From a virus, in IMG/VR virus record IMGVR_UViG_3300021419_000004, positions 4,460 to 68,459 of that record: a stretch of 64,000 bases of DNA; one strand, given 5' to 3'. The first letter of the stretch is position 1. Each line of letters opens with the position of its first letter. The notes below the pieces were generated by a model, which was given only the letters and a program-made list of their open reading frames with translations, searched no databases and was not told the origin of the DNA. Below are positions 35,820 to 52,501 of the stretch, piece after piece. Both the position numbers and the translations under genes were made by a program.

Positions 35820-35837
35820 CGCCAAGGAGACGAGACC

Positions 35838-36221: not shown

Positions 36222-36254
36222 GCCACCAGCGGCTGGAGCCGCAAAGGAGATCAC

Positions 36255-36935
36255 ATGCTCGTGCCCATCAACGGTGCCTTCGGCTCCATGGACGCTGCCT
36301 ACGGAGATGCCTACGGAGCGTCCTACGGCGCCAGCAGCTGGCTGGCCGAGCGCCGCCGCAACCTCAAGAAGGCCCGTCAGCGCGTGATCGCCGCCACCAA
36401 GAACCAGGCCGCCCAGGCTCAGTCCCGCGGCTACCTGGTCCCCACCTCCTCCGCCGCCCAGGCCGGTTCCGCCGCCTGGACCGGCCGGACTCGCTTCTTC
36501 CAGAAGCCCGGCTTCGTGGAGCGCTACCAGTCCCTGCCCACCGCCGTGAAGGCAGGCACTGCGGCCATGATCCCCGGCATCGGCCCTTGGCTGGCCGCCG
36601 GCATCCTGGGCAAGAAGGTGGTCGAGGTGGGCACCAGCCGTCGCAAGGGCAGCGTCGGCACCAGCATCCGCAAGGGGCCGGGCGGAGCCACTGTCGGCCG
36701 CGGGCCTCGAGGCACCAGCGCCTACACCACTGCCAACGACCTCTACGCCGCCCAGGATGCCTTCTCCCAGGGCTACCCGGCCGAGGGCGCCGCTACCTCC
36801 TCCGAGACCGCAGTGGCTGAGGTCTCCGCACCGAGCTACGGCCTGATGGCGGTCGGCGCCCTCCTGTTGGCCGGTGCCGGCTACGCCCTCTTCAAGCGCT
36901 TCAAGAAGGGCAAGAAGAGCAAGAGCAAGAAGTAG
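36255..36935 (+). CDS. Tail-anchored virion membrane protein
   Basis: AYGDAYGASYG N-terminus; C-terminal TM plus KRFKKGKKSKSKK. Confidence 0.75.
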   Translation: MLVPINGAFGSMDAAYGDAYGASYGASSWLAERRRNLKKARQRVIAATKNQAAQAQSRGYLVPTSSAAQAGSAAWTGRTRFFQKPGFVERYQSLPTAVKAGTAAMIPGIGPWLAAGILGKKVVEVGTSRRKGSVGTSIRKGPGGATVGRGPRGTSAYTTANDLYAAQDAFSQGYPAEGAATSSETAVAEVSAPSYGLMAVGALLLAGAGYALFKRFKKGKKSKSKK

Positions 36936-36944
36936 GAGGCACCC

Positions 36945-37631
36945 ATGTCCGCCTGGAGCAACAGCAGCAACTGGGGGCACCCAGTCGCGGGAGCTGCAGC
37001 ACCGTCTGTGGCCGCCACACCTGCGTCTTTCGCGGGCTACGGGGACCCCTTCGTGCGCCCGCAGATGGCCGGTCCGCAGGTGGCGGCCTTGGGCAGTGAC
37101 GCCAAGGTCAACCGGCTGCTGTCAACCAAGGCCAGCGCCGAGCTGGCGAGTGGCTACTACAAGGGCGGCGGCGGCTACACCTACCTGTGGGACGCACCCT
37201 CGGCGACCATCACCATCGCAGCCGGGCCCACGGGCGCGGGCTCCCAGCTCTCCCCGGGGCACACCTACTACAACGCCGTGCTGACGGAGCTCTACCGCAT
37301 CGGCGCTCCCAACACCTCCAGCCCCACCGGCAGCGCAGGCAGCTCGGCAGCGGCCGCCGCGGCGGACGCAAGTGGTGCCGGTGGGATCTCTGGCGGCAGC
37401 CGCTTCGCCAACATCGTCTCCGGCCTCAGTCAAGCAGCCACGACCGCCGCGGCGCTGACCTCCCAGGTCGCCGCAGCCAAGGCGGCCCAGGCCGCCACGG
37501 CAGCGCCAGCAGTCGCAGCTCCGGCGCAGATGGCGCCGGCAACGCCCTCGCGCCTGCCCTGGATCCTGGCCGCTGTTGGTGGAACCGTGGTTCTCGGACT
37601 CATCTTCGCCACCCTCCGGAAGCGCCGATGA
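36945..37631 (+). CDS. Tail-anchored virion membrane protein
   Basis: AGYGD; LPWILAAVGG TM plus RKRR. Confidence 0.75.
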   Translation: MSAWSNSSNWGHPVAGAAAPSVAATPASFAGYGDPFVRPQMAGPQVAALGSDAKVNRLLSTKASAELASGYYKGGGGYTYLWDAPSATITIAAGPTGAGSQLSPGHTYYNAVLTELYRIGAPNTSSPTGSAGSSAAAAAADASGAGGISGGSRFANIVSGLSQAATTAAALTSQVAAAKAAQAATAAPAVAAPAQMAPATPSRLPWILAAVGGTVVLGLIFATLRKRR

Positions 37632-38311
37632 GTACCGCTCAGCTGGCCGGAACGGGTGGGCGCTGGGGAGCTGCGTCTCCCTGGGGTGCCTATGGCCGCG
37701 GCGGCGCTGTCCTCAGCACCGTGGGCGCCGGCCTGCAGAACATCGACTGGCAGCAGACCGGAGAGGCCCTGAGCCAGGCCGGCGCTGCCGGCGTCAGCAT
37801 CTACAGCAACATCTCCGCCATCAAGGCTCAGCAGGCCGCCGAGCAGGCCGCAGCCAACCAACTCGCCCTCCAGGCCTCCGCGCCAGCGCCTGTTGTCTCG
37901 ATTCCGACGGGCTCCGGCGTCCTGCCTTGGGTTGTGGCAGGAGTGGCAGGCCTGGGGGCTTTGGTGCTGCTGCTCCGTGGTCGCGGGAAGGGCGGCCGCC
38001 GCAAGAACCCCTATGGCGTCGAGCCGGTCACCATCATCACCGGCCTGGCCACCGGCATCTCCGCCCTCGTGGGCGCCGCCAAGGTCGGGTACGACATCCG
38101 CAGTGGCAAGCGCGCGGAGCGCATGAGCCAGACGATGGCAGCTCACCAGCAGCTGCAGGCAGCTCAGACCGCGGCCTACACCGCAGGGGCCCAACAGGCC
38201 GGCGCCGAGCTCCAGCGGGCTCAGCAGGCGCGCAGCCTCAAGACCTTCGGAGCACTCGCCGTTGTCGGCGTGCTCGTCTACCTGTTCTACAAGAAGCGGA
38301 GTTCCAAGTGA
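37628..38311 (+). CDS. Two-unit membrane protein (TM-RRKNPYG-unit-TM)
   Basis: ATGA overlap; two TM plus basic segments. Confidence 0.75.
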   Translation: MSTAQLAGTGGRWGAASPWGAYGRGGAVLSTVGAGLQNIDWQQTGEALSQAGAAGVSIYSNISAIKAQQAAEQAAANQLALQASAPAPVVSIPTGSGVLPWVVAGVAGLGALVLLLRGRGKGGRRKNPYGVEPVTIITGLATGISALVGAAKVGYDIRSGKRAERMSQTMAAHQQLQAAQTAAYTAGAQQAGAELQRAQQARSLKTFGALAVVGVLVYLFYKKRSSK

Positions 38312-38988
38312 ACCAGCCTCTCCAGTTCTCCCAGGATCCGGGAATGACGCCCGTCCCTCTCCCCCAGGGCCGCATGCAGATGCCGGCAGGGGCCCAGTCC
38401 GGTGGCGGCAAGCTGCCCGCCCTGCGTCCGGTGCCCCAGGGCTACATCCACGGCCGAAGTGCTGAGCTGCCCCTCGACGTGGAGGCGGATCTGGAAGGGG
38501 GGCCTGCCGTGAATGTGAAGCACCTGCTTCTGGGAGCTGGGGCCGGGTACGCCGTGGGCGGCCCTGTTGGCGCCCTGGCTGGCGGCATCGTGGCCCACAT
38601 CCTGGGCAAGCGGTCGTCTCAGCACGCCTACCAGATGCCGGACAACACCGTCGGCTATGGCGCCACCTACGGAGACGCCTGCAGCCGCTGGCAGCGCAAG
38701 TACGAGCGTTACGCCCGCAAGGGTGGCAAGCGCCGAGACAAGTGGGCCGACAAGAACTACTCCAAGGCGGCTGCTGCAGGCTGCGCCTGGACCCAGCCTG
38801 AGGGCGTCCAGCAGATGCTCCAGGGCCAGATGCCGGACGTGACCAGCTATCAGACCCAGGGCTACCAGGAGGCCATGGCTGCGGCTGGTGGGACCGGAGT
38901 CGGTGGCGGCAACGCGGCCTCACCGGTGTTGCTGGTCGCCGGTCTGGGCGCAGCCGCGCTGGGCCTGATCTACATGTTCACTCGCTGA
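38308..38988 (+). CDS. Two-unit membrane protein (glycine-zipper TM, GYGATYGD, C-terminal TM)
   Basis: GTGA overlap. Confidence 0.75.
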   Translation: MNQPLQFSQDPGMTPVPLPQGRMQMPAGAQSGGGKLPALRPVPQGYIHGRSAELPLDVEADLEGGPAVNVKHLLLGAGAGYAVGGPVGALAGGIVAHILGKRSSQHAYQMPDNTVGYGATYGDACSRWQRKYERYARKGGKRRDKWADKNYSKAAAAGCAWTQPEGVQQMLQGQMPDVTSYQTQGYQEAMAAAGGTGVGGGNAASPVLLVAGLGAAALGLIYMFTR

Positions 38989-39035
38989 GCGCTGAGCGCC
39001 AGCACACCGCGCCCCGGGGCGCAAAGGACGAGACC

Positions 39036-39290
39036 ATGAGCAAGAAGTTCGCCAGCAAGGGTCAGATCAAAGAGCAGCTGCAGGACGCCGTGGAGAAGGT
39101 GGCTGAGAAGCTCGAGGCCACCAACATCCAGGCCGACGAGCTCCCTGAGCTCTCCGCCAAGTTCACCATCGCCCTGACTTCGACCATCGAGGCCGCCAGC
39201 GACAAGCGCTTCACCTTCACTGAGCTGATGGATGTCGGTGCCAAGTGGAGGGCCTTTGGTGCTGCCTGGAAGGCCGCCCGCCAGGACTGA
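39036..39290 (+). CDS. Small helical protein
   Basis: AAGGA RBS. Confidence 0.7.
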   Translation: MSKKFASKGQIKEQLQDAVEKVAEKLEATNIQADELPELSAKFTIALTSTIEAASDKRFTFTELMDVGAKWRAFGAAWKAARQD

Positions 39291-39316
39291 GAGCGCGCAA
39301 GCGCTGAGGAGCCCCT

Positions 39317-39742
39317 ATGCCCTGCACCTGCCATCAACGCGCCTCCCACGGCTACCTGGGCTACCAGGGCTACGGGAATGCGCACTACGGCAACGCGGAC
39401 ACCGATACGCCTGAGGCCGAGTCGTCCTCCTGGGAACAGTACGCGCCCCTGGTGACGGCAGTGGTCGAGGGCACCTCTGACCCCCACAAGCAGGCGTTGC
39501 TGTGGGAACAGCGGCTGGTGACGCTGCAGAAGGCAGGCTTCTCCCCCGAGAGCGCCGCCTACCGCAGCGCAGAGGCTCGGTACCAGGCTGCCCTTCGCGC
39601 CGCCGGGATGGAGCTCGAGGAGGAGCAGTCCACGCGCGAGTGGCGGGCCCTCGGCAAGGCTGGCATCGCTACTGGCATTGTCGTCGGTATCGGTGTCCTG
39701 GTGGCGCTGGGCGTGGCCATCGGCCGCGGAGGCAAGAAGTGA
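39317..39742 (+). CDS. Tail-anchored virion membrane protein
   Basis: GYLGYQGYGNAHYGN; C-terminal TM plus RGGKK. Confidence 0.75.
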   Translation: MPCTCHQRASHGYLGYQGYGNAHYGNADTDTPEAESSSWEQYAPLVTAVVEGTSDPHKQALLWEQRLVTLQKAGFSPESAAYRSAEARYQAALRAAGMELEEEQSTREWRALGKAGIATGIVVGIGVLVALGVAIGRGGKK

Positions 39743-40425
39743 GCATCCAGGCTGCCCGCATCCAGCGACAGGCGGAGCTCCTCAAGCAGCTCAAGCCGGC
39801 CGGCACCTTGCGGAAGAACAAGCGAGCCCGCAAGAAGGCCAAGCGGAAGTTCTCCGGCACGGCTGTGGCGCGTACCAACGCCGCAGGCAGCAAGCGTTGG
39901 ATGTGGTGGGCAGCTGCGGGCACAGGCGTCGCTCTCATCGCGGGCAGCCTCTTCAAGCCGGTGCGGGGGCTCCTGCGCGGGTTGGGCATCGGAGGTGTGG
40001 ACCATCCCGAAGCCTGGGCGGTAGACCGTAGTGCAGCCGCCCTGGACGAAGCTGCTCGGGAGACCAGCGACGCTGCGCTGTCGGACAACTACAGCCGTCT
40101 GTCCCAGCTCGTCGCCTCCGGAGGCGTCTGGGGCCAGGATCGCAGCGCGGCGGACATCCTCATCGGGACCGCGGCGATGATCAACTACCAGGCAGCCCCG
40201 GTGGCCTCCAGCCGGCTCCGGCTGTTCATGGCGGACCGAGGGGTGAGCTGGAAAAGCGGCGGCACCGTCGTCACAGATGCTGAGCTCGCTGAGCTGGAGG
40301 ACGTGGTAGGCTGGCGCTCGATGTTGCCGGCCTGGCGCCCCTCCCTGGGACTGGCTGGTGCCGGTGCAAGCCTGGTGCTCGTCGGCATCGTGGGCACCAT
40401 GCTCACGCGGAGGAAGAAGCGATGA
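39739..40425 (+). CDS. Basic N-terminus, two-TM membrane protein
   Basis: RKNKRARKKAKRK; ends TM plus RRKKR. Confidence 0.75.
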   Translation: MSIQAARIQRQAELLKQLKPAGTLRKNKRARKKAKRKFSGTAVARTNAAGSKRWMWWAAAGTGVALIAGSLFKPVRGLLRGLGIGGVDHPEAWAVDRSAAALDEAARETSDAALSDNYSRLSQLVASGGVWGQDRSAADILIGTAAMINYQAAPVASSRLRLFMADRGVSWKSGGTVVTDAELAELEDVVGWRSMLPAWRPSLGLAGAGASLVLVGIVGTMLTRRKKR

Positions 40426-41159
40426 ACGCGATGACCACGACCATTCAGCCGGGCATGCCCCGGGCCAAGGCAACGGCGACTGGCGTCGGCCTCCGCTCTC
40501 TCCCCTGGATCATCGGCGGCGCCATCCTCGCCAAGGCCGGCGGCTTCCAGCCCGCTGCGGGTGCGTTCATGGGCCTGGGCATCGGGGTGTCCCTGGGCCT
40601 GCGGCGGGCAAAGGAGCAGGAGCTCCTGGGCAGCGCTGGGTCTCCGGTCCTGCAGGACGCCGCTGCCAGCGTGGCGACCGCGGGCATGGCCGACGCGGAC
40701 ACCCTCAAGACCGCCTGGAACTACTGGACCAAGTGGGGTGTGCGTGGCGGGCTCGAGAACGTGGCCTATGAGGCCGAGGAAGCTGCGGCCGAGGCTGCAG
40801 GTGCTGCCGGGGGCATCGCCGCAGCTGCGCAGCAAGCCTACAAGGATGAACTGGAGCGCCGAGAGCAGGAGCGCAAGCGCAAGCGCATGGAGCGCATCCT
40901 CAAGATCGGCGGTCTGAGCCTGCTGGGTCTGGTCATCGCCGGTGGGGTCGCTGGCCGGGCGGCGGGCGGGACTCGTCGGCGGAACCCGGCGAAGGACAAG
41001 GGCCCCAGCTGGCTCGCCGTTGGCCTTGTGACTGCCCTGGCAGCTGCGGACACCGTGACGCCCGGGTTCCCCTTCCCGGGCTCCGCCGTGGTACTGGTAC
41101 CAGCGGCTGCCGCAACCTGGCTGGCCAAGCTGAGCGCCATGGGTGTGAAGCTCCGCTGA
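40422..41159 (+). CDS. Multi-TM membrane protein with RRRNP motif
   Basis: LPWIIGG TM; GGTRRRNP. Confidence 0.75.
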   Translation: MNAMTTTIQPGMPRAKATATGVGLRSLPWIIGGAILAKAGGFQPAAGAFMGLGIGVSLGLRRAKEQELLGSAGSPVLQDAAASVATAGMADADTLKTAWNYWTKWGVRGGLENVAYEAEEAAAEAAGAAGGIAAAAQQAYKDELERREQERKRKRMERILKIGGLSLLGLVIAGGVAGRAAGGTRRRNPAKDKGPSWLAVGLVTALAAADTVTPGFPFPGSAVVLVPAAAATWLAKLSAMGVKLR

Positions 41160-41168
41160 GAGGACGAC

Positions 41169-41888
41169 ATGAGACTGCTGAACCAGGGCATCCGCAACAT
41201 CGCCGCCCGGCTGGGGATTGACCAGGCCTGGGAGGACTCCGAGGAGGCCGCCCAGGACGCCTACGAGTCCCACCACTGGGGCCACAAGCATGACGGCACC
41301 ACCTTCACCGACGACCATCCGGACGCGCCGGCGGTCTCGACGGAGATGGGCAAGCTGCTGGCGCTGGGGGTCATTCCCATCGGCAAGCGAGGTACTCCCG
41401 ACCGACGGGCCGCCAAGGCCATGCACCACTGGGAGAAGCGCCTCGAGCTCAACCCGGAGAAGGTGCCGGGCGAGGATGAGGGCATCGCCGAGCTGTGGTT
41501 CAACGGCCGGAAGGACCCGCGCTGCATCGTCAGCTTCACGCCTGCATCGGAGCTCCTGCACCTGGCGCTCCCTCCCGATGAGCAGAAGCGCATGCAGGCC
41601 TACTTCCGTAGCGCGCACCTCTACCCCCTGGGCGAGCTGGCCGGTATCCGCGGTGGTCGAGCTGCTGAGGGTGATGAGCGTCAGGTTCCGGTGGCGCTCC
41701 TGGGTGAGCTCGCCTGGGTGATGTACCTCACCGACAAGAAGGGCGATGGCGTCAGTGAGTACGTGCACGGCATGGGCACGGAAGGCCGCTTGACCCCGAT
41801 GCGCCCCTACCTGTGTGTCGCCGAGGATGGGTCCCTGTGGCTCGCCGGTGGCAACTACGAGGTCAAGTCCGTCGGGATCAGCGGATGA
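41169..41888 (+). CDS. Soluble protein of the structural module, unknown function
   Basis: YESHHWGH, LGELAWVMY...EYVH...PYL...LAGGNYEV..GI. Confidence 0.75.
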   Translation: MRLLNQGIRNIAARLGIDQAWEDSEEAAQDAYESHHWGHKHDGTTFTDDHPDAPAVSTEMGKLLALGVIPIGKRGTPDRRAAKAMHHWEKRLELNPEKVPGEDEGIAELWFNGRKDPRCIVSFTPASELLHLALPPDEQKRMQAYFRSAHLYPLGELAGIRGGRAAEGDERQVPVALLGELAWVMYLTDKKGDGVSEYVHGMGTEGRLTPMRPYLCVAEDGSLWLAGGNYEVKSVGISG

Positions 41889-42532
41889 GGCGTGGGTGGC
41901 TGTGGCTTGCGGCGGTGACGCTGCCTGCAGTCACCGGGCTGTTGGCGTGGTGGTACCGCCGCAGGACCGTCTTGTCGCTACCCGGCCAAGAGGAGAGCAT
42001 CGTGGCAAAGGTCTACCAGTGGACGGAAGAGCTGATGTCCGGCACCGAGGAGACGGAGGTCGAGGGTGTCCGGGCCAAGAAGGGCGTCGTCTTCACGCCC
42101 CAGATCCTGACGGGCCTGCAGCGCCTGCGGGACGCCCTCGGGCAGGATGCCTACGGGCTCGTGGTCACCGACGGCTGGCGCACCCCTGAAGTACAGGCTG
42201 CCCGGCTGTGGAGCAAGTACCTCAAGGGCACGACCATCCGAGGCAAGTACACTCCGCCCGGCTTTGGTGCGCTCTACGCGCTCTACAAGGCCGACTGGAT
42301 CATCGCCAAGCTCGAGGAGGCCGGCGCCAGCAAGAGCGCCTGGGCCAGTGTGCTCAAGAAGCTGGCGAACCAGGGCTACTACCTCAGCGACCACCAGCGG
42401 GGTGATGCCTTCGACCTGCGCACCCGCGGCATGCCCGCCGACGACCGTGCCAAGATCCTCGCAGCCGTGAAGGCCCTCGGCGGGTCGGCATTGGACGAGG
42501 GCGACCACATCCATGTGGAGAATCTGGGATGA
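41885..42532 (+). CDS. Membrane-anchored peptidase M15 (Hedgehog/DD-peptidase fold) peptidoglycan hydrolase
   Basis: VTDGWRT, SDHQRGDAFD, DHIHVE; N-terminal TM. Confidence 0.85.
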   Translation: MRRGWLWLAAVTLPAVTGLLAWWYRRRTVLSLPGQEESIVAKVYQWTEELMSGTEETEVEGVRAKKGVVFTPQILTGLQRLRDALGQDAYGLVVTDGWRTPEVQAARLWSKYLKGTTIRGKYTPPGFGALYALYKADWIIAKLEEAGASKSAWASVLKKLANQGYYLSDHQRGDAFDLRTRGMPADDRAKILAAVKALGGSALDEGDHIHVENLG

Positions 42533-42780
42533 CTCTTTCCGAAGCCTTGGAAGCCTACGGGCGCCTCGCCCCTGCCGACAATGCGCTATCCCGACGCGTG
42601 TACGCGGCTATGCCCCAGCTCTCCGACCCGCCCACGCGGGAGGAGCTCATCGAGTGGCTGGCCTGGAATGACCCCAACGGCGTCTACTACGACGAGGACA
42701 TGCTCTATGAGTTCGGTGAGGTGCTGACCCTGGAAGAGGCCCAGGATCTCTTCATCGAGACGATGGAGGAGGCGGGCTGA
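42529..42780 (+). CDS. Small acidic protein
   Basis: REELIEWLAWNDPNGVYYDE. Confidence 0.7.
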   Translation: MTLSEALEAYGRLAPADNALSRRVYAAMPQLSDPPTREELIEWLAWNDPNGVYYDEDMLYEFGEVLTLEEAQDLFIETMEEAG

Positions 42781-43136
42781 TGCCCCGCTTCCTCATCTAC
42801 CTCACCTTGCCTGCCGTGGAACTCATCAGGCCGGCGGCGCTGGTGCGGGGAGTCTCGAAGGTGGCCCTGGGCGTCGAACGGAGCAGGGCTGGTGACGGCG
42901 GCTTCTACAAGGCGTACCGGAGAGCCGGCGGGGACCCAGACAAGCTCTCCGACTACTGGATCCAGAAGAGGGATGCCTTCATCGCCCGCCACCGCGCCCA
43001 GATGCGGGAGCGCGGGTCGAATGGCTGGGAGAAGGTGGGAGGCGAGTGGAGGCCAACCCGCCAACATCTGGCGCTGGCCGCCTGGGCCTACTCACCATCT
43101 CCCGACCGGCTCATCCGCTGGGCTGAGAGCCAGTAG
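42780..43136 (+). CDS. Hypothetical protein
   Basis: W..KRDAFIARH...PTRQHLALAAWAYSP. Confidence 0.7.
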   Translation: MPRFLIYLTLPAVELIRPAALVRGVSKVALGVERSRAGDGGFYKAYRRAGGDPDKLSDYWIQKRDAFIARHRAQMRERGSNGWEKVGGEWRPTRQHLALAAWAYSPSPDRLIRWAESQ

Positions 43137-43146
43137 CGCCAGCAGC

Positions 43147-43386
43147 TCAGCCGAGGTGCCCCAGGCTCGCGGGGCCCGGGTTGCTGCTCACCTTGATGGC
43201 CTTCTCCAGCTCGGGGGTCATCTGGCCTTTGCGCCTGGCCTCTTGCACCAGGACCCACAGGGCCATCGCTTCCTCCACGGCCGCAACCAGCGAGATCTGA
43301 CGCCATCCGCGCATCATGTCGAAGTTGCGCTTGATGGCCGTGCGGACATCGACGCGCACGCTGGATCGGCTTTGGGGTGTGGCCAT
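43147..43386 (-). CDS. Putative ribbon-helix-helix DNA-binding protein
   Basis: SVRVDVR beta strand followed by two helices (SLVAAVEEAMALW); GGAGG RBS. Confidence 0.55.
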   Translation of the reverse strand: MATPQSRSSVRVDVRTAIKRNFDMMRGWRQISLVAAVEEAMALWVLVQEARRKGQMTPELEKAIKVSSNPGPASLGHLG

Positions 43387-43600
43387 GTGGATGCAGTCCT
43401 CCGGACCGTCCTGTGGCCCGTGGAGGGACCATAGCACAGGTGCAGGAAGTGTGAAAGGTGCGAGAGGTGCGCAATAACCGGAGTATCTCAGGTGAATCGA
43501 GCTTCGTCCCTTGGACTGCTCTACCGCCTCCGCTACGGTCCAAGTGTCTCGAGCCCACCGCGGGTCTCGGAACCTTCATTCCCACCCCGAGGAGGCCCCC

Positions 43601-44437
43601 ATGGCCGTGCGCAAGCGCAAGACGCGCAAGAGCACCAAGCGCCGCCGGAAGAACCCGGTGCGCGGCGTTGGCACGCTCGTCCTGAACCCCCGCCGCAAGC
43701 GTCGGCGCCCGGTCAAGCGGAAGCGTCCCGTGAAGCGCCGCGTGGCAGCTCGCCGGAAGCCGGTGCGTCGCCGCAGGCCCGCCGTCCGTCGGCGCAAGGC
43801 TGTGGCTCGTCGTCGCCCGGTGCGGCGTCGTCGGCCCGTGCGCCGGAAGGCAACGCGTCGCCGCAACAGCGCCGTCTACATGCGGAAGACCAACCCCAAG
43901 CGCCGCCGGCGCAGCAAGGCCAAGGTCCGCTACAGCCGCAAGAAGAACAGCGTCCGGCGTCGCCGGAACCCGGGCTTCGCTGGCATGCTCAAGAAGATCC
44001 CCTTCATCGGCAAGCCCCTGGCCGCCATGGTCGAGGCCCTCCCCGCTGCTGCCCTGGGCGCCATCGGTGTCGAACCCACCATGATGCTCGCCAAGTTCGT
44101 CGGGCCCTACGTGCCCCAGATGAACCCGGCGATCTTCTACGCCCTGACCGGCTCCCTCCTGGCCGGCATCATCGGCTCCACCTCCTTCCTGGGCGCCGCC
44201 TTCCACAAGAAGCTGGCCATCGCGGTGGCTTCGGCTGCCGGCGGTGTCGCCTACTACAAGTGGCGGACCGAAGGGCCCATGTCGGACATGCCGACCGAGA
44301 TGGCGGGTCTCCCCTCCTACTCCGGCATCGGCAACGTCCTGGGCCTCCCCGACTACGGGGACACCGGCTACGCCGTCGTGCCCATGGCAGGCCTGCACAC
44401 CCAGCCCCTCGCGGGCCCCGGTGGCTACCCCCGCTGA
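43601..44437 (+). CDS. Arg/Lys-rich protamine-like DNA-condensing protein with C-terminal membrane domain
   Basis: About 125 aa R/K-rich region punctuated by NP motifs, then about 3 hydrophobic helices; GGAGG RBS. Confidence 0.8.
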   Translation: MAVRKRKTRKSTKRRRKNPVRGVGTLVLNPRRKRRRPVKRKRPVKRRVAARRKPVRRRRPAVRRRKAVARRRPVRRRRPVRRKATRRRNSAVYMRKTNPKRRRRSKAKVRYSRKKNSVRRRRNPGFAGMLKKIPFIGKPLAAMVEALPAAALGAIGVEPTMMLAKFVGPYVPQMNPAIFYALTGSLLAGIIGSTSFLGAAFHKKLAIAVASAAGGVAYYKWRTEGPMSDMPTEMAGLPSYSGIGNVLGLPDYGDTGYAVVPMAGLHTQPLAGPGGYPR

Positions 44438-44443
44438 CTGAGT

Positions 44444-44467
44444 GCGGCCCTGGACAACCAGGGCCGC
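44444..44467 (+). other. Perfect 10-bp hairpin upstream of the capsid candidate
   Basis: GCGGCCCTGG-ACAA-CCAGGGCCGC. Confidence 0.7.
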
Positions 44468-44550
44468 CTCACCCTCGCTTCCCCGCTCGCAAAAGAGCAC
44501 CTGGCTGGGCCGATTGAGGCCCTCACTCCTACCCCCCAAAGAGGTACACC

Positions 44551-45237
44551 ATGTTCCCTTCTCTCGGCGCTCCCGGCCAGGTCGTGGCTGGCGGAAACCC
44601 CACCGCCCTCGCTCCGATGGCCCTCCCCAAGTCCGTCGTCCGCATCGGCGAGCAGGCCATCTGGTCCACCCAGCAGTACGCTGACGCGACCGCCCTGGCC
44701 CGCAACGAGGACATCCTGTTCTCGACCCCCCAGAACGGCACCGGCCAGGGCTTCGCGGCCCCGCTGAGCCTCGCGGAGACCAACCTCCGTGAGTCCAGCC
44801 GCATCCCCGGCGGCTACGCCTACACCGTCCAGGCCATCGCCCTGCAGACCTACTACGCCGACCAGTGGGCCATCGTGCGCGCTGACGTGGCGAACCTGGT
44901 CAACAACTGCGTCCCCCAGTGGTCCTTCCTCCAGGTCCGCATCGAGATCGCTCCCGCCCAGCTCATCGGCGCCGGCGGCGGTGTGTACGGCGACACCGCC
45001 GACACCGGTGCGGCCGACGGTGGCTCCGGCGGTTCCCGGACCACGCTGAACAACGGCAACGGGCAGGTGTGGGTCTACCGCGCCCACCCGGTCGCCCTGC
45101 CCGCGAACAGCACCTACAACATCGTCCTGAGCTGGGGCGCCAACGCCTCCGCGGTGGACGGCGGCCAGAACAACAGCTCGCAGAACGTGCGCTGTGTCCT
45201 GCTCGGCACCTTCGAGAGCGCGATCCCCATCGCCTGA
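44551..45237 (+). CDS. Putative major capsid protein (single jelly-roll-like)
   Basis: Beta-rich, LFSTP...ETNL....RIP..Y.V.AI pattern; strong C-ending codon bias; flanked by hairpin and terminator. Confidence 0.55.
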   Translation: MFPSLGAPGQVVAGGNPTALAPMALPKSVVRIGEQAIWSTQQYADATALARNEDILFSTPQNGTGQGFAAPLSLAETNLRESSRIPGGYAYTVQAIALQTYYADQWAIVRADVANLVNNCVPQWSFLQVRIEIAPAQLIGAGGGVYGDTADTGAADGGSGGSRTTLNNGNGQVWVYRAHPVALPANSTYNIVLSWGANASAVDGGQNNSSQNVRCVLLGTFESAIPIA

Positions 45238-45286
45238 CCGAGGGCGGGTCTTCCCGCTGGCCTCGGCCCTTCTCGGGCCACCACAG

Positions 45287-45328
45287 GGCCGGGGCCCCTC
45301 ATCTGAGGTGGTCCCGGCCTTTTGCTTT
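45287..45328 (+). terminator. Rho-independent terminator after the capsid candidate
   Basis: GGCCGGG...CCCGGCC stem followed by TTTTGCTTT; extra hairpin 45238-45266. Confidence 0.75.
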
Positions 45329-45339
45329 CAGGAGCTCCG

Positions 45340-46002
45340 ATGAGCAAGCCCTTCGTCCCGGCCTGGCTGCAGGGCCAGTACGGCCAGCAGGTCCAGTTCC
45401 CCAAGGACTACCGCGCCTCCCTCTCCCCTCCCACCCTGGGTCAGATGGCCCAGGCTGCCGCCAACGCACAAGCAGCGCAGCAGGCTCAGGCAGCTGCGCA
45501 GGGAGCACCCATGCATCCCCACATGACCGGAGCTCCCACCTGGCAGCGCGAGCAGGTCTACTACCCGACCCCGCTCCTGCCGGAAGCCCCCAACCTGGCC
45601 AAGACGCCGCGCGACATCGTGCTGCGCTTCACCAACCAGGCCGTGGGTCAGGAGATCTTCCTGCCGCTGCAGGTGGACATCCCTGGCGTCATCTACGCCG
45701 TCTCCGGAGGTGCCTACACCACCGACGACTCCAACCTGCCCGTGGGCCGTGATCCCCTGGACACCTTCCTGGTCCGCATCGAGCGCAACAACGGCGACCG
45801 CTTGCAGACCCAGGCGGGGTTGGGCTCGGCTGTCGTGGGCCCCGCCCGCTTCCCCCGTCTGCTCGGCGGCCCTGGCTATGTGTTCCAGCGTGGCGCTTCG
45901 CTGCGGGTGGCGGTGACGCCCCTGATCGCCAACCTGGACATCACCATCTGCTGCTGGATCATGGAGATCCGCGGTCCCACCAACATCTCGGCCGTGGGCT
46001 GA
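45340..46002 (+). CDS. Putative second capsid/penton protein (jelly-roll-like C-terminal domain)
   Basis: Disordered N-terminus plus about 8 predicted beta strands. Confidence 0.5.
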   Translation: MSKPFVPAWLQGQYGQQVQFPKDYRASLSPPTLGQMAQAAANAQAAQQAQAAAQGAPMHPHMTGAPTWQREQVYYPTPLLPEAPNLAKTPRDIVLRFTNQAVGQEIFLPLQVDIPGVIYAVSGGAYTTDDSNLPVGRDPLDTFLVRIERNNGDRLQTQAGLGSAVVGPARFPRLLGGPGYVFQRGASLRVAVTPLIANLDITICCWIMEIRGPTNISAVG

Positions 46003-46013
46003 GGAGGTAGATC

Positions 46014-46496
46014 ATGAACACGATGTTCCCCCACACCGTCGGCATCACGCCGGGGCTCAACAACACCATGGCGCTGGGCCTGGGCCTGTACCCGGATGCC
46101 ACGCAGTCGATGAACTACGACAACGAGAGCAACTCGCCCTCCCCGGGCGACACCCTCACCGGCGGCACCTCGGGTGCCACCGGCACCGTCATCGGCGTCT
46201 CTCCCCTGGTGGCGGCGGGCTCCCGCAACGTCTACCTGGCGGATGTGGTCGGCACCTTCCAGAACAACGAAGTGCTGAGCGTCGGAGCCACCACCATTGG
46301 TGATGCCAACGGCACCAACACCTCCTACGACCCCAACACCGACGACCCCCTGGTCAGCATGTACTTCGTGGACGTGGCCCCCAACGGGGCGGTCCAGGGG
46401 AACAAGGGCGACATCGCCATCTTCCTGGGCGGTGCCACCGCAGCCTACTACGGCTGTGACGGCGGCTCCGTCTGGCGGCAGTTCACCCTCGTCTGA
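46014..46496 (+). CDS. Virion spike/vertex protein
   Basis: GDTLTGGTSGATGTV...GTFQNNE and APNG..G.KGD...W structural motifs. Confidence 0.6.
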   Translation: MNTMFPHTVGITPGLNNTMALGLGLYPDATQSMNYDNESNSPSPGDTLTGGTSGATGTVIGVSPLVAAGSRNVYLADVVGTFQNNEVLSVGATTIGDANGTNTSYDPNTDDPLVSMYFVDVAPNGAVQGNKGDIAIFLGGATAAYYGCDGGSVWRQFTLV

Positions 46497-46502
46497 TCTG
46501 CT

Positions 46503-46610
46503 ATGAGCACTGCCCTGGGGTATCTTGGGGCAGTGCTCGCGTGGCTGCGGCCACCTCCGGCCGCCTCGCGCGGCCTCTCCTCTCTCTGGACCTTGGAGCG
46601 CTCCCCATGA
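46503..46610 (+). CDS. 35-aa peptide (not in ORF track)
   Basis: MSTALGYLGAVLAWLRP...; stop overlaps ATG 46607. Confidence 0.4.
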   Translation: MSTALGYLGAVLAWLRPPPAASRGLSSLWTLERSP

Positions 46611-47350
46611 AGCCGAAGCCGACCGGTCAGCCCGTGATGCCTGTGGCAGCTCCTACTCCGACCTCTCCAGTGGTCGGGGCCCATGCCCTCCCCGGCCCCA
46701 GCCTTGCGGGCCACGGACAGATGGCCGGCCCCGAGCATCTGGCCGGCAACGTCCAGGGAGCTGGACGGCATCCCTTCTACGGCTACCCGAACCTGTGGGC
46801 AGGCGCCGATGCATCGGCGCCTGCTGAGGCAGGAAAGGAGATCCGGGCCTTCTACGGGGAGACCCTGGTTGTCCCTGCAGCAGCCTGGGAGACCAACCCG
46901 GCCAACTTTGAGCCGGACACGCCGGACGACGTGGTGGCCCAGTACATCTGGGAGGGCCCGCTGCTGGACTTGCGGAAGGACCTCAAGGGCTCCTTCGGCA
47001 ACGGCCTGCACGAGGCGACGACCATCGGCCGAGCTGGCAGCTACGGCTCCGGCGTCAAGATGACCATGCTCGCCCGCATCGAGGGCATCAACATCCCGGA
47101 CTATCCGGAGACCCTCCGGGTGTTCAGCCGGGAGGCCCTCAGCCCCTTTGACTCCCGGGACATTCAGACGGTCACCGAGTGGCAGGAGATCTCCACGGAC
47201 TGGTGGTCCGGGGGCGCTGCCGTCAACCTCACCTGGAGCCCCCCGGGCGCCCCCATCCGCTTCTGGCGCGTCTACCTGCGCCTGGACCAGGCCTCCGGAA
47301 CCGCGCCTGCGGACACGCCCCTGCTCCGCCTCCAGCCCAACGCCCAGTAG
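46607..47350 (+). CDS. Beta-rich virion protein
   Basis: GGAG RBS; beta-sandwich-like C-terminus. Confidence 0.6.
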   Translation: MKPKPTGQPVMPVAAPTPTSPVVGAHALPGPSLAGHGQMAGPEHLAGNVQGAGRHPFYGYPNLWAGADASAPAEAGKEIRAFYGETLVVPAAAWETNPANFEPDTPDDVVAQYIWEGPLLDLRKDLKGSFGNGLHEATTIGRAGSYGSGVKMTMLARIEGINIPDYPETLRVFSREALSPFDSRDIQTVTEWQEISTDWWSGGAAVNLTWSPPGAPIRFWRVYLRLDQASGTAPADTPLLRLQPNAQ

Positions 47351-47359
47351 GACAGAACC

Positions 47360-47734
47360 ATGCCTTTCGAAGGATCGGAACAGTGGGGAGCTACCCGGGT
47401 CGCATCGGCGCAGACCAGCCAGGAGCGTGAGATCAGCGCACTGGCTGGCGGCTCCGACTACACAGGCCAGACCCAGGCAGTCAACAACCTGCCGCACCAT
47501 ACCCTCTACATCCGGCAGGACTCCGGGGATCAGCTGTGGGACGTGACTGTCGAAGTGCTGCACTCCACCGGCACTTGGCGCCCCATTGACGAGTTCACCA
47601 TGACCGGCATTGGCGGACCGACGCTGTTCCGCGAGTACCGCGTGGTGGCGGAATCCATCCGCGTCGAAGTCTCCAACCCGCCTGTGGGAGCACCCTCGGG
47701 CGGTTGGTACATCCTCTCCTCCTTCTCGCTGTAG
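47360..47734 (+). CDS. Small jelly-roll-like vertex protein
   Basis: 124 aa all-beta pattern (VTVEV...W...IRVEVSN). Confidence 0.55.
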   Translation: MPFEGSEQWGATRVASAQTSQEREISALAGGSDYTGQTQAVNNLPHHTLYIRQDSGDQLWDVTVEVLHSTGTWRPIDEFTMTGIGGPTLFREYRVVAESIRVEVSNPPVGAPSGGWYILSSFSL

Positions 47735-47743
47735 GAGCTCTCC

Positions 47744-48556
47744 GTGAGCCAGTACGTCATCCGCATTCGTGAGCGTCAGGGCAAGGGCAAGATCCGTGCC
47801 GAGCTCCCTGGCACCTTCACTCAGGCCAAGGCAGTGAAGACCGGTCAGTCCATCGCTGACGACTACTCGTTGCCCGCGGGGTGCAAGGTGGTCGTGGAGA
47901 AGAAGGGAGGAGCCAGGCGCAAGAAGGCCGCAAAGAAGCCCCGTAAGCCGGCACGCAAGGCGGCCCCGAAGCGTGCATCCAAGCGCAAGAGCAACCCTCA
48001 CCGCCCGACCCTGACGATGCTCCTCAACAAGGGTGAAACGCTCAGCTGGGCCAAGAAGCGCAAGCCGGGCTCAACGGTGACCATGGGCCAGGGGCACAAG
48101 GGCTTCGCCGTCATCGACTGGACCGTGCCTGGGGGGAAGGAGCACCACTACAAGACCCCCAGCGGCGCCATCAAGCGCTTTGAGGAGCTGGTGGGCACCC
48201 AGGGCGCCTACAAGGCCATTGCTGCGTGGGAGCAGAAGCACGGCAAGCTGGCCGCAGCGGGTCGCATGGGCGACCTCGAGAAGGCCAGCAAGCAGGCGAG
48301 CCGGCGCAAGAACGCGGGCAAGCGCAGCAAGAAGTGGATCCAGAAGGCCGACGCGCAGATGGAGAGAGCAGGCACCGAAGGGGCCTTCACCGCCCAGGCC
48401 AAGCGCGCCGGCTACGACGATCCCTTGAAGTACGCCCGGCACGTCAAGAAGACCTATGAGGCCGCCCGCAAGAAGGGCAAGACCGCCGGCAGCAAGGGTG
48501 TCCCGACCTTGCGCACCTACCGCCGGGCGATGTTCGCGCTGAACGCGCAGAAGTAG
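47744..48556 (+). CDS. Histone-like basic virion core protein
   Basis: KKAAKKPRKPARKAAPK, KRKSNP, KKWIQKA...GAFTAQAKRAG. Confidence 0.7.
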   Translation: MSQYVIRIRERQGKGKIRAELPGTFTQAKAVKTGQSIADDYSLPAGCKVVVEKKGGARRKKAAKKPRKPARKAAPKRASKRKSNPHRPTLTMLLNKGETLSWAKKRKPGSTVTMGQGHKGFAVIDWTVPGGKEHHYKTPSGAIKRFEELVGTQGAYKAIAAWEQKHGKLAAAGRMGDLEKASKQASRRKNAGKRSKKWIQKADAQMERAGTEGAFTAQAKRAGYDDPLKYARHVKKTYEAARKKGKTAGSKGVPTLRTYRRAMFALNAQK

Positions 48557-48594
48557 GGGCAGGAGAGGACGGGGAGCCCTGATCGAGGTCTCCT

Positions 48595-49197
48595 ATGGCA
48601 GGCAGCAACAACTTCCAGGGCCCCGTCATCCTGACGGAGCTCGACAGCTACTTCGCCTGGGGGCGTCAAGGCCCGGGGGTGTCGAGCCACGTCCGCGTCT
48701 ACCGAGTGGACTACGACCCGAATGGAGTGCTCGCAGCTCCTCGGGGTAGCTGGGCTCTCCGGGACGATGCGGGGCAGGTGGCCGCCTACCTGAACCAGGA
48801 TGGTGCCTCGACCTGGGCCAAGCTGGTCCCTAACGGAGGAGGCACCGCCGGCCTGGTGATGCCCCTGGAGAAGGAACTGCTGCCTTTGGGTGGGGATGAC
48901 ATCACGGACTCCGTGAGGGTCAATGCAGCGGGCACCATAGTCGAGGTGCTGTTCTACTGCAGCGTGGCCTACACCACGGCCGGCTCTTTCACCATCGACG
49001 TGCAACTGAACAGCGTCAGCGTGCTCAGCGCTGTGGTGGACGGCACGACTATTCCGGCACTCCCCGGGGTGCTCACGGCGCCGCTGGCGGCATCTACGCC
49101 CCTGGCCGCGGGGGATGTCCTCTCAGTGGTGCTTTCCAGTGACAACGCAGACCTGGCTGGGGCCGGGCTCACGGCTGTTTTTCGGACGGAGGCCTGA
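48595..49197 (+). CDS. Virion spike/decoration protein
   Basis: DPNGVLAAPRGS...W module plus beta domain ending LAAGDVLSV...AGLTA. Confidence 0.6.
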   Translation: MAGSNNFQGPVILTELDSYFAWGRQGPGVSSHVRVYRVDYDPNGVLAAPRGSWALRDDAGQVAAYLNQDGASTWAKLVPNGGGTAGLVMPLEKELLPLGGDDITDSVRVNAAGTIVEVLFYCSVAYTTAGSFTIDVQLNSVSVLSAVVDGTTIPALPGVLTAPLAASTPLAAGDVLSVVLSSDNADLAGAGLTAVFRTEA

Positions 49198-49198
49198 G

Positions 49199-50737
49199 AT
49201 GGGCGACTACAAGAGCAGCCGTGATGCAGGTGCCAAGAGCCCGGCGTCCCCTACCCGGATCGGAGCTTCGACCGACAACCAGGTGCGCGGCCAGTTCAAC
49301 ACCGGCGCCACAGGCATCATCACCGGCGGCCGTGGCTCCGTAGATGCGGATCCGGCCAAGTTCCAGCTCGCCGCTGGCGAGGGCTGGGTGCGCGTGAACA
49401 CCACCAACCCGGACGACCCTGAGCAGATCCGGCTGGTGTGGGATGCAGTGACAGGCATTGACCCGCTCAACAAGGCAGGGCCCGGCGCGGCCATCAGCTA
49501 CGTGTGGGCCAGCCTACCCACGGTCTATTCAGGCGAGGTGGTCACCGCTGAGATCACCCAGACACAGCCCAGCGACTACCCAGACCCGGGAGACCCTACG
49601 CCTTCGGAGTTCCGGGAAAAGGTCTACCTCGGTTTCGTCGTCTTTGAGTCCTTCCTGGGCATCGTATTGGCCTTCGTCGTCAACGTCCGGGCAGCCCTGA
49701 ACGTTGCTGCCCAGCTCGCCGACCTCAGCGCTTCCCTGGGTTCCCTCCGGGTGCAGGATGGCGAGGTCCGGGCCATCGGCGCACTCCAGCTCGAGCAGGA
49801 CGCCGGCGTCTTCTACGCGGAGGGCGCCAACTGGGTAACCTCGGAGCTTGTGCCTTCGGTGGTTGATGCTGCAGCCATCTCTCCCCTGCTTGGCGGGACC
49901 GGCTACCGCAGTGGCGCCAACGATGGGCGCTTCTCGGTGACTCCGGGCCCGCCCACGACCTCGCTGGATCCCACGCTCTATGACGACGGGAGCGGCACTC
50001 CTCGGACGGTCCCGGCAGGCCAGGTGACCATCCAGCGCATCTACTACAATGTGACCAGCCCTGGGCACCTGTTCATGTATGGGCAGGAACTCTACGAGAG
50101 CCTGGCGGAGGCGCACGCCAACATCCTCACCGGTCCCTTGGAGGACATCCCTCAGTTGCGGGCGGAGGATTGGGTGTTGGTGGCTCAGGTTGCGGTGGTG
50201 CAGTCGGCTACGGACCTCACCGACCCCGAGCAGGCCCTGGTCTACAACGCGTTGCCCTCAGGGAAGCTCAGCCTCGAGGCCGATCCGCCTGCGATGCCGG
50301 CCCCCAGCGGCATCGTGGGCACGGCCACCAACTTTCCCTCTGGGGGTGGAGCGATTGAGTTCGCCAACTTCGGTGCGGTCACCGGCCCTGGTGCAGGCGC
50401 CTTCACGCTACCGGTGGACGCCTACATCGTCGCTGTGGTCTACACGTTCAGCCACACCAATCCCATCAACATCGGAGCCGGTGAGTCCATCACCTTGACC
50501 GCGGGCCTCTTCGTGCCGGGCGCGGCGTTGACCACTGCCAACTACACGCCTGAAGCAACCACTGAACAGATCTGGGACAGCAGCTTCTCCGGCACGCACC
50601 CGATCTCCGTGGTGCAGCCGACGGATCCCATCTTGGTGAACGCGGGGACCCCCATCGGTATCCGGACCGTGGAAAGCGGTTCAGTGACCCCTGCCAATGC
50701 TGACCTATTGGCCACGCTGTGGTATAGACCAGCATGA
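49199..50737 (+). CDS. Fibre/receptor-binding-like protein
   Basis: TGIITGG...FQLAAGEG, LDPTLYDDGSG...TIQRIY; G/T/P-rich beta protein. Confidence 0.6.
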   Translation: MGDYKSSRDAGAKSPASPTRIGASTDNQVRGQFNTGATGIITGGRGSVDADPAKFQLAAGEGWVRVNTTNPDDPEQIRLVWDAVTGIDPLNKAGPGAAISYVWASLPTVYSGEVVTAEITQTQPSDYPDPGDPTPSEFREKVYLGFVVFESFLGIVLAFVVNVRAALNVAAQLADLSASLGSLRVQDGEVRAIGALQLEQDAGVFYAEGANWVTSELVPSVVDAAAISPLLGGTGYRSGANDGRFSVTPGPPTTSLDPTLYDDGSGTPRTVPAGQVTIQRIYYNVTSPGHLFMYGQELYESLAEAHANILTGPLEDIPQLRAEDWVLVAQVAVVQSATDLTDPEQALVYNALPSGKLSLEADPPAMPAPSGIVGTATNFPSGGGAIEFANFGAVTGPGAGAFTLPVDAYIVAVVYTFSHTNPINIGAGESITLTAGLFVPGAALTTANYTPEATTEQIWDSSFSGTHPISVVQPTDPILVNAGTPIGIRTVESGSVTPANADLLATLWYRPA

Positions 50738-50769
50738 GGCGAGTCGCGCCGTAGCGCGAAGGAGATTCC

Positions 50770-52310: not shown

Positions 52311-52501
52311 GCCAGCTTGACCCGACTCCCATTCAGGTGATGCAGAACGCCGTTGCGCGCGCTGCCGAGAAGGAGCTCAAGGCCCGAAAGACCGCCTCGG
52401 CAGTGCTCGCCCAGGTGCTACCGGATGAGGACAGGCAAGCGCTGGAGGAGAGGCTCAAGGAAGGCTCCCCTCTCAAGCTCAAGCCCATCACCCGCCACTG
52501 A
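52307..52501 (+). CDS. Small hypothetical protein
   Basis: ATGA overlap. Confidence 0.6.
   Translation: MSQLDPTPIQVMQNAVARAAEKELKARKTASAVLAQVLPDEDRQALEERLKEGSPLKLKPITRH

Follow-up and report, generated by a model that had tools for sequence, protein, structure and literature searches.

The DNA analysed here is a window of 64,000 nucleotides (nt), bases 4460–68459 of a single virus contig of 68,459 bp (IMG/VR record IMGVR_UViG_3300021419_000004), and the gene in question is the open reading frame (ORF) at positions 43601–44437 of the window, on the plus strand. It encodes a 278 amino acid (aa) protein in which a strongly basic N-terminal domain is fused to a conserved hydrophobic domain, and it is found directly before two genes for predicted single jelly-roll (SJR) capsid proteins. 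The ORF is confirmed as a real gene; the guanine plus cytosine (GC) content at its third codon positions (GC3) is 0.88 in a contig of 67% GC. A start at ATG 43601 is preferred over the upstream TTG 43511 because of a Shine-Dalgarno sequence, GAGGAGG (43589–43595), situated 5 nt upstream of it. A divergent gene (43147–43437) precedes the ORF, which is the first of its transcription unit.

The protein as a whole displays 75 arginine plus lysine (R+K) versus 7 aspartate plus glutamate (D+E) residues. The first 150 residues contain 48 R, 21 K and one acidic residue, and the remainder of the chain is 4.7% R+K. The N-terminal domain proper, residues 1–131 (43601–43993), is 51% R+K with no D or E and has a net charge of about +67. 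It is laid out as Arg/Lys runs (3–5) with short neutral spacers between them, several of the runs ending in Asn-Pro or Asn-Ser. A long R+K tract, the near absence of acidic residues and the spacing of the Arg runs are the features of protamine-like or viral basic core proteins, which form a class by composition and not a homology family. An earlier reading of this DNA made from the letters alone (the sequence-only reading) had described an R/K-rich N-terminal half joined to a hydrophobic part, and the domain structure found here agrees with that description.

The hydrophobic domain spans residues 132–223 (43994–44269) and includes the sequences LKKIPFIG... and VEPTMM. Kyte-Doolittle windows of at least 1.2 (maximum 1.65) show hydrophobic stretches at residues ~133–168 and 174–202, followed by the conserved, Gly/Ala-rich sequence LAIAVASAAGGVAYYKWRT. 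The sequence-only reading called this part a membrane anchor. By hydrophobicity only one segment, residues 178–196, is a marginal candidate for a transmembrane helix, weaker than the anchors predicted in the neighbouring genes. The rest of the coding region (44270–44437) consists of an acidic linker, a C-terminal tail and the stop codon, with the pattern E..G.L followed by GD.GYAVVP. A Pfam search with the protein showed no family. A look-up of residues 120–278 in the ESM Atlas gave unnamed viral clusters (score 0.90) and structural neighbours of low template-modelling (TM) score, membrane helical proteins among them, which are leads only. A complex prediction that combined the first capsid candidate, the core of the second and residues 216–278 of the basic protein gave a score of 0.00, which speaks neither for nor against binding.

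With the hydrophobic domain as query, 23 homologues were found among clusters at 90% identity and 106 cluster representatives at 50% identity (E-value ≤ 1e-3). Alignment A2 consists of 20 of the 23 homologues; P0112–P0114, with scores and lengths near-identical to those of P0109, were dropped. An N-terminal extension of at least 60 aa is present in 69 of the 106 representatives, with a median of 41% R+K. Fifty-nine of these 69 extensions have at least 35% R+K, and 64 have at most two acidic residues. Tracts in the family are 100–230 residues long and 35–53% R+K, with almost no acidic residues. The N-terminus in A2 is conserved (MARRR..RRRNP.R..G.L..NPRRR) and is followed by many RRRN[PTS] repeats, the last of which, RRRRNP, coincides with the domain boundary in almost every member. 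Invariant positions of the hydrophobic domain are P134, G137, G153, P159, Y180, G184, A210, G214, Y219 and K220. Beyond the domain, A2 shows the acidic linker and then a GDG.AY.V.P tail, where E233, G236, L238 and P261 are invariant or nearly so.

The repeated element, an Arg/Lys run ending in Asn and followed by Pro, Thr or Ser (RRRN-P), is found up to ~13 times per protein. The shorter motif [RK][RK]N is enriched over shuffled sequences in 13 of 16 family members (its count being reached in at most 3 of 2000 shuffles). The protein in the window displays a weak enrichment, reached by 79 of 2000 shuffles. The RRRN-P motif may mark sites of processing, or it may be a repeat unit that binds DNA. 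In L005 2700–4487, L007 8403–9935, P0107, P0115 and P0120 the tail is followed by another conserved C-terminal domain (GHRWGWLIKLIG...LPP..R), which is absent from the protein in the window.

The position of the gene is conserved as well. An ORF with a basic and a hydrophobic part is found directly before the gene for capsid candidate 1 in all seven IMG/VR relatives (described below). There are 87 distinct loci containing the capsid gene, of which 20 have too little upstream sequence, leaving 67 that can be assessed. In 46 of the 67, the ORF before the capsid gene carries a 60-residue window of at least 40% R+K, and in 43 of them a hydrophobic segment follows. Control frames on the same strand (≥250 aa) show a basic window in 21 of 270 cases and a basic-then-hydrophobic arrangement in 9 of 270. 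Thus the arrangement before the capsid gene exceeds chance.

Jelly-roll capsid candidates and related genomes

Capsid candidate 1 (44551–45237, plus strand, 228 aa) begins 113 nt downstream of the basic protein gene and is a predicted jelly roll, in keeping with the earlier placement of the basic protein directly upstream of the capsid candidate. It has 105 database homologues, all without names or a Pfam family, of which 66 form alignment A1. The AlphaFold2 (AF2) model, made with 67 sequences, is a confident beta sandwich and has a predicted local distance difference test score (pLDDT) of 82 and a predicted TM score (pTM) of 0.74. The best Foldseek match in the PDB is the capsid protein of the portoglobovirus SPV1 (6oj0, E-value = 1.5e-3, probability = 1.00), with no match at ≤1e-3. 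An aligner independent of Foldseek (VIA) also places SPV1 6oj0 first (Z = 8.4, root-mean-square deviation 3.4, 136 residues aligned). The next matches are a tailed-phage cement protein, satellite-virus coats, HHIV-2, HCIV-1 and P23-77 VP17.

Capsid candidate 2 (45340–46002, plus strand, 220 aa) is found directly after candidate 1 in five of five related records, and an hhalign comparison of the two shows no sequence homology. Its AF2 model, made with 14 sequences, has a pLDDT of 70 and a jelly-roll core at residues 82–217. The best structural matches are HHIV-2 6h82_b (Z = 8.5) and SPV1 (Z = 7.7); 6h82_b is also the top Foldseek match (E-value = 7.5e-3). Z values of 7.7–8.5 are middling, and the aligner warns that such values are common. 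They are comparable in size to the Z of 7.5 which the available text of PMC8812541 gives for SPV1 VP4 and P23-77 VP17, accepted relatives. Because the scores are middling and the identity is 7–10%, candidate 1 resembles the SPV1 capsid protein in fold, short of proven kinship. Two loci have a duplicate capsid 1; in L018 5435–6890 and L019 7825–9199 the tandem paralogues stand before candidate 2 and make three jelly-roll genes in a row.

A scan of IMG/VR with the single sequence of candidate 1 found no relative. The alignment-based scan found seven, of 39–105 kb, together with five contigs binned with bacterial metagenome-assembled genomes (MAGs; Nannocystaceae, Gemmatimonadota, Alphaproteobacteria and Solibacteraceae) and, among metagenomes, no fewer than 116 loci, 80 of them retained. 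The metagenomic loci come from marine, freshwater, groundwater and soil-type samples. Two of the genomes are circularly closed, G001 (92.7 kb, 25-nt end overlap) and G002 (73.0 kb, 127-nt end overlap). The window genome, G001 and G002 have a common core that consists of the DNA polymerase, a Sak4-like ATPase, a PD-(D/E)XK nuclease, an SNF2 helicase, a DUF3987 protein, an integrase, a transglutaminase-like protein and its 127-aa neighbour, the basic protein and both capsid candidates. By BLAST the basic protein is found in G001 only; the G002 counterpart was identified from position and composition. The recurrent order at the locus is transglutaminase-like protein, 127-aa protein, further genes, basic protein, capsid 1, capsid 2 and a 269-aa protein. 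A virus group that is widespread in metagenomes, and that carries neither names nor Pfam families in the databases searched, has the basic protein gene as a hallmark. The literature searched contains no description of this group or of a membrane-anchored protamine-like phage protein.

Search for a packaging motor

The sequence-only reading stated that no Walker A motif is present in any gene of 34758–52895. This is true in substance, with one qualification: the region contains a single match to the loose consensus [AG]x4GK[ST], AARKKGKT at 48461, within a Lys-rich ORF at 47744–48556. The match is situated ~240 residues into a 270-aa protein, and therefore no Walker B motif can follow it. It also fails a relaxed scan for a hydrophobic strand, GK[ST] and a downstream Walker B, and is a chance hit. 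Over the whole contig in six frames, the Walker A pattern is found in a RecD-like helicase, in the Sak4-like ATPase, in AARKKGKT and twice outside called genes.

Both genuine P-loop proteins of the contig are encoded on the minus strand. The Sak4-like AAA_24 ATPase (5164–6294), a recombination protein, carries GPPGSGKT and matches the Sak4-like PHROG 124 (E-value = 1.8e-6); its G002 homologue passes the Pfam AAA_24 threshold. The gene adjoins those of the PD-(D/E)XK nuclease and the polymerase. The second true Walker A protein is a RecD/PIF1-like superfamily 1 helicase (2053–3741; AAA_30, 70.8 bits, with UvrD_C_2 and PIF1).

Profile searches were made in six frames on the contig and related records, the two circularly closed genomes included, and every such search gave matches in control genomes. 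FtsK_SpoIIIE, Terminase_6N, TerL_ATPase and Pox_A32 gave no hit in any of five records. The one signal with DUF87/HerA, in the same number of records, was a sub-threshold P-loop match over 18 positions in a G001 accessory ORF. Terminase_3, Phage_capsid, Phage_portal, AAA_10 and GpA_ATPase were each found in none of eight records, portal and capsid being represented by one Pfam model each, so that very divergent forms are possible. T2SSE, also searched in eight records, showed nothing except the same P-loop in the G001 accessory ORF.

An inventory of P-loop proteins in five genomes consists of the Sak4-like ATPase, SbcC/SMC-like ATPases (AAA_23 and SMC_N in G001–G004), RecD/UvrD and SNF2 helicases, thymidine kinase and one STAND-like accessory ORF. 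The Sak4-like ATPase is the only one common to all five, and the relaxed scan showed no additional P-loop protein. Searches of the large ORFs of three genomes against Pfam and PHROGs found no structural or packaging family, and 20 proteins of the present genome gave only Sak4 and three families without known function among the PHROGs. In the capsid 1 neighbourhoods of 92 loci (772 kb) there are 41 regular-expression matches. Only two are convincing, both AVAGSGKT, a UvrD-type motif, in ORFs of 622 and 660 aa.

Two further candidates were rejected. The G001 ORF with GSTGSGKT, considered as a hidden packaging ATPase, has a homologue in none of the five other records and shows only sub-threshold P-loop matches. 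This ORF (L010 15690–17009, 410–440 aa) displays weak STAND and receiver matches and is found beside a UvrD helicase and an integrase; with phmmer it gives weak P-loop and receiver-domain noise only (E-value ≥ 0.07). The 668-aa and 703-aa ORFs at 59768–63894, considered as terminase and portal, show no Pfam, PHROG or PDB signal. In phmmer searches of PDB sequences, the 440-, 507- and 703-aa proteins had no match at E-value ≤ 1.

The check proposed with the sequence-only reading, a search of the full contig for A32/FtsK ATPases, was thus extended to relatives and detected none. Nor was a packaging ATPase or terminase, which the same reading named as the result that would overturn it, found outside the window, where the additional 4.46 kb of the contig encodes a gene for uracil-DNA glycosylase (UDG) fused to family A DNA polymerase. 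As far as sequence profiles and motifs can detect, there is good support for the absence of a packaging ATPase of any described kind, both around the capsid genes and in two closed genomes.

Neighbouring genes and gene blocks

The structural module begins with a transglutaminase-like (papain-fold) protein (34758–35819, plus strand; Pfam Transglut_core, 25 bits, cut-off 23) with a C-terminal membrane anchor at residues 313–349. It is the conserved first gene of the module, with homologues in G001, G002, L002, L003, L006 and L007. Seven small proteins follow on the same strand between 36255 and 41159 (genes beginning at 36255, 36945, 37628, 38308, 39317, 39739 and 40422), each with a hydrophobic helix at or near the C-terminus (Kyte-Doolittle ≥ 1.6), mostly followed by a short basic tail. 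Their sums on an insertion scale are −1.2 to +2.3. Thus eight consecutive late proteins of 34758–41159 end in a hydrophobic helix, with basic tails such as KKGKKSKSKK, RKRR, KKRSSK, RGGKK and RRKKR. The charge and hydropathy scan from which these figures come covered 22 of 27 genes. Because eight proteins of the module carry C-terminal hydrophobic anchors, the virion probably contains a membrane. The membrane proteins of PRD1 have N-terminal anchors, whereas the design here is tail-anchored.

A Peptidase M15-type cell-wall hydrolase (41885–42532, plus strand; Pfam Peptidase_M15_3, 25.5 bits, cut-off 23.2) points to a bacterial host. Downstream of the capsid genes, the Lys-rich ORF already mentioned (47744–48556, plus strand) is a second basic protein of 270 aa, with 67 R+K versus 19 D+E and no hydrophobic segment. 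Pfam and PHROG searches assigned it to no family, and the related loci compared contain no homologue; by its composition it may be a soluble DNA-binding core protein. No tape-measure-sized gene is found in the late block of this genome. The picture is that of a tailless, membrane-containing bacterial virus with two single jelly-roll capsid proteins.

About 93 genes were called on the contig (GC3-based gene call), and they form two blocks. There is no terminal repeat, both contig ends cut through genes, and an exact-match scan of metagenome contigs with the right-hand window end found no match. The minus strand carries the early block, which encodes the UDG and family A polymerase, a D12 methylase, the RecD-like helicase, the Sak4-like ATPase, an SNF2-type helicase, a sigma factor, a CheR-domain protein and a tyrosine integrase. 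The plus strand carries the late block, 28161–52895, consisting of nearly all ORFans. The UDG-polymerase fusion (L102 3–3563, outside the window) exceeds 1187 aa and is truncated where the contig ends; its residues 607–639 match Hint_2 weakly, a possible intein. The viral sigma factor (Sigma70 regions 3 and 4) and the CheR-domain protein, a methyltransferase, are encoded at 15999–17270 and 19806–20534 of the early block. Two large adjacent ORFans at 59768–63894 (703 aa and ≥668 aa) matched nothing in Pfam, the PHROGs or the PDB sequences. The first has a 788-aa homologue in G001, where it is likewise followed by an ORFan, of ~705 aa. Upstream of the structural module, 28161–30044 encodes a Gln-rich, coiled-coil-looking protein of 603–627 aa with homologues in G001 and G002, which has no family match and is a possible candidate for a scaffold or tape-like protein.

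Assembly, alternatives and relation to known viruses

The arrangement suggests that ORF 43601–44437 encodes a structural core protein of an uncharacterised group of large bacterial viruses with two jelly-roll capsid proteins and many small membrane proteins. The N-terminal polycation (~+67) would bind, neutralise and condense the viral double-stranded DNA (dsDNA), as protamines and adenovirus core proteins do. The hydrophobic domain would sit in or on an internal virion membrane, so that the condensed genome is held against the membrane, and the anchored neighbours would have their basic C-terminal tails on this DNA side too. Membrane and capsid would then assemble around the pre-condensed nucleoprotein, as proposed for portogloboviruses, with no pumping of DNA into an empty shell. 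Since no packaging nucleoside triphosphatase, portal or terminase was detected in the group, such enclosure around a nucleoprotein appears the most likely route. We infer from these data the presence of the protein in the virion, its DNA binding, its membrane insertion and topology, and co-assembly. Taken whole, the explanation of a DNA-condensing, membrane-associated core protein with motorless assembly has about an even chance of being correct.

A rough charge estimate gives some support to a polycation that neutralises the genome. The capsid of HHIV-2 has a triangulation number (T) of 28, and that of SPV1 is given as T = 43 in the source text available. With one copy per jelly-roll subunit and T = 28–43, ~1,600–2,500 copies of the basic protein would bring 1.1–1.7e5 positive charges. 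By the same rough estimate, 68.5–78.3 kb of dsDNA carry 1.4–1.6e5 phosphates. The estimated charges thus roughly match the phosphates.

Several findings weigh against this explanation. The hydrophobic domain is only moderately hydrophobic (Kyte-Doolittle maximum 1.65), and its best 19-mer, 178–196, scores +2.6 on the insertion scale quoted above, where the clear anchors of the neighbours score −1.2 to +1.4 and the capsid proteins at least 4.8. The basic extension is missing as annotated in 37 of the 106 family representatives, which start at or near the domain boundary and may be truncated gene calls or genuinely separate genes. The ORF upstream of the capsid gene is less basic, 18–38% R+K, in 21 of the 67 loci. 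Tailed-phage jelly-roll cement proteins score nearly as well as SPV1 in the comparison with candidate 1 (KHP40, Z = 7.9). The contig is incomplete: CheckV gives a completeness of 88%, leaving ~12% of the genome unseen, and capsid candidate 2 has an identical counterpart recorded on a contig of 78,307 bp. Finally, the absence of a motor was read from profiles and motifs in genomes whose genes are mostly ORFans, two proteins having been folded, and this leaves room for a divergent or host-supplied motor.

The short family members and the Asn motif also fit a different reading, somewhat unlikely on present evidence, in which the gene product is first made as a polyprotein-like precursor. Cutting after the Asn of the basic-basic-Asn motifs by a virion protease, perhaps the papain-fold transglutaminase-like enzyme, would set free many short protamine-like peptides and a membrane protein; the DNA would be condensed but untethered in the mature particle. 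In adenovirus, a viral cysteine protease matures pre-VII and pre-mu. The motif is above shuffled sequences in 13 of 16 members, RRRRNP marks the domain boundary in nearly all of them, a papain-fold protein is conserved in the module, and several of the 37 representatives that begin at or near the boundary have a short Arg run with an NP remnant. However, the protein in the window shows only the weak enrichment of 79 in 2000 shuffles, the short forms could be truncated gene calls or contig ends, and we know of no transglutaminase-fold enzymes that cut after Asn.

An unlikely alternative to assembly around a nucleoprotein is a hidden motor. A divergent ORFan ATPase, the Sak4-like ATPase in a second role, or a host translocase such as FtsK would pump the genome, and the basic protein would only neutralise charge. 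To our knowledge, 70–105 kb is far above the genome size of any prokaryotic virus that assembles around condensed dsDNA, and room for a motor is left by the unseen 12% of the genome, by late genes that are mostly ORFans without Pfam or PHROG family and by the Sak4-like P-loop protein common to the five inventoried genomes. The Sak4-like gene, however, is grouped with nuclease and polymerase genes, and the FtsK, HerA and A32 proteins have a canonical Walker A motif, of which no unexplained example is found in the two closed genomes. In helvetiaviruses the ATPase gene adjoins the capsid genes, but here the P-loop genes within 10 kb of the capsid gene in ~90 loci are only UvrD-type helicases.

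The protein could also be a membrane-active delivery or lysis protein (ejection or pilot, or holin-like) whose Arg-rich arm acts on the membranes or nucleic acids of the host when the virus enters or leaves. The Gly/Ala-rich hydrophobic domain is of a kind that membrane-active proteins have, the M15 hydrolase gene is found 1 kb upstream, and the gene opens a transcription unit after the divergent 43147–43437. This is quite improbable: most loci keep the gene immediately upstream of the capsid gene, a tract of 100–230 residues with 35–53% R+K exceeds what membrane targeting needs, and the estimated charge per copy times a capsid-like copy number approximates the genome charge. A tailed phage with undetected HK97 capsid, portal and terminase, with the jelly rolls serving as cement or decoration and the basic protein housed inside the head, is very improbable, since the cement proteins among the top fold matches (KHP40, Z = 7.9; Pam1, 6.7; GP4, 6.3), the similar genome size and PolA/Sak4/SNF2 replication module and the mostly Uroviricota (automatic) labels of the nearest Atlas clusters stand against null searches in five (Terminase_6N, TerL_ATPase) or eight records (Terminase_3, GpA_ATPase, Phage_portal, Phage_capsid) including two closed genomes, against PHROG matches of 20 proteins to only Sak4 and three families of unknown function, and against a late block of mainly small anchored membrane proteins with no tape-measure-sized gene in this genome.

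Returning to the membrane-associated core protein, the closest known system in predicted function and architecture is SPV1 (Portogloboviridae), with its SJR capsid protein, inner lipid layer and dsDNA-protein core and, as far as the available source text goes, no ATPase. The comparison with portogloboviruses made in the sequence-only reading is apt, in that the SPV1 capsid is the best structural match of candidate 1 and SPV1 is without a packaging ATPase in the available text of PMC8812541, where helvetiaviruses have one of the FtsK-HerA type. The differences are also clear. In the sources as available, SPV1 has a hyperthermophilic archaeal host (Sulfolobales) and a circular genome of ~20 kb, whereas the present group carries genes of bacterial type (an M15 peptidase, sigma-70 regions 3 and 4, a CheR domain), relatives in bacterial MAG bins and genomes of 39–105 kb, the closed ones being 73 and 93 kb. 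There is no sequence similarity, with 7–10% identity in the fold alignments. SPV1 VP1 is not described as membrane-anchored in the available portions of PMC8459092 and PMC8812541.

Helvetiavirae (Sphaerolipoviridae, Simuloviridae and Matshushitaviridae, including HHIV-2, HCIV-1 and P23-77) have an internal membrane and two SJR capsid proteins, vertical in the shell, which are encoded by adjacent genes; an adjacent gene pair is also found here. Candidate 2 matches HHIV-2 best, and HCIV-1 and P23-77 VP17 also match candidate 1. Helvetiavirae genomes are 16–31 kb overall, and we know of no protamine-like protein in helvetiaviruses. For Simuloviridae, the source text available gives 16–19 kb. According to the available text of PMC8812541 Helvetiavirae encode an FtsK-HerA packaging ATPase, but none was detected here.

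Adenovirus VII, V and mu, baculovirus P6.9 and the sperm protamines condense dsDNA in a particle or nucleus by Arg-rich tracts with short neutral spacers, to which the N-terminal domain is similar in composition, without homology. These proteins are soluble, whereas the basic protein is fused to a conserved hydrophobic domain. Adenovirus encodes a packaging ATPase, IVa2. Phages of the PRD1/PM2 type (Tectiviridae, Corticoviridae) are tailless and have an inner membrane rich in small viral membrane proteins as well as virion lytic enzymes. Their capsid protein is a double jelly roll, and a P9-type FtsK/HerA ATPase pumps the DNA through a unique vertex. Their genomes are 10–15 kb, and neither a P9-type ATPase nor a double jelly roll was found here.

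With bacterial hosts, genomes three to five times larger, PolA-based replication and a membrane-linked polycation, the group fits neither portogloboviruses nor helvetiaviruses. The chance that the group as a whole forms a new lineage of high rank is substantial. The fuller proposal, of a widespread, undescribed lineage of that rank whose members are tailless, inner-membrane, two-SJR, motorless bacterial counterparts of portogloboviruses, in which a membrane-anchored protamine, perhaps cut at its RRRN-P repeats, condenses 70–100 kb of dsDNA and nucleates its wrapping by membrane and capsid, is tentative and falls somewhat short of an even chance.

The gene pair is a clean marker for further members, and virus discovery pipelines rely on hallmark genes that such genomes lack. 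In a published scenario, as given in the available text of PMC8812541, helvetiaviruses arose from a portoglobovirus-like ancestor by capsid-gene duplication and capture of an FtsK-like ATPase. If the present explanation is true, the group would be the missing intermediate of that scenario, with the capsid gene duplicated and the FtsK-like ATPase yet to be acquired, and the portoglobovirus-like architecture would reach beyond hyperthermophilic archaea into common bacteria. In nearly all known bacterial dsDNA viruses, an ATP-driven motor pumps the DNA into a shell formed beforehand. Condensation of 70–100 kb of DNA on a membrane-bound polycation, with the particle built around it, would be an assembly route new for bacterial dsDNA viruses and unprecedented at such a genome size.

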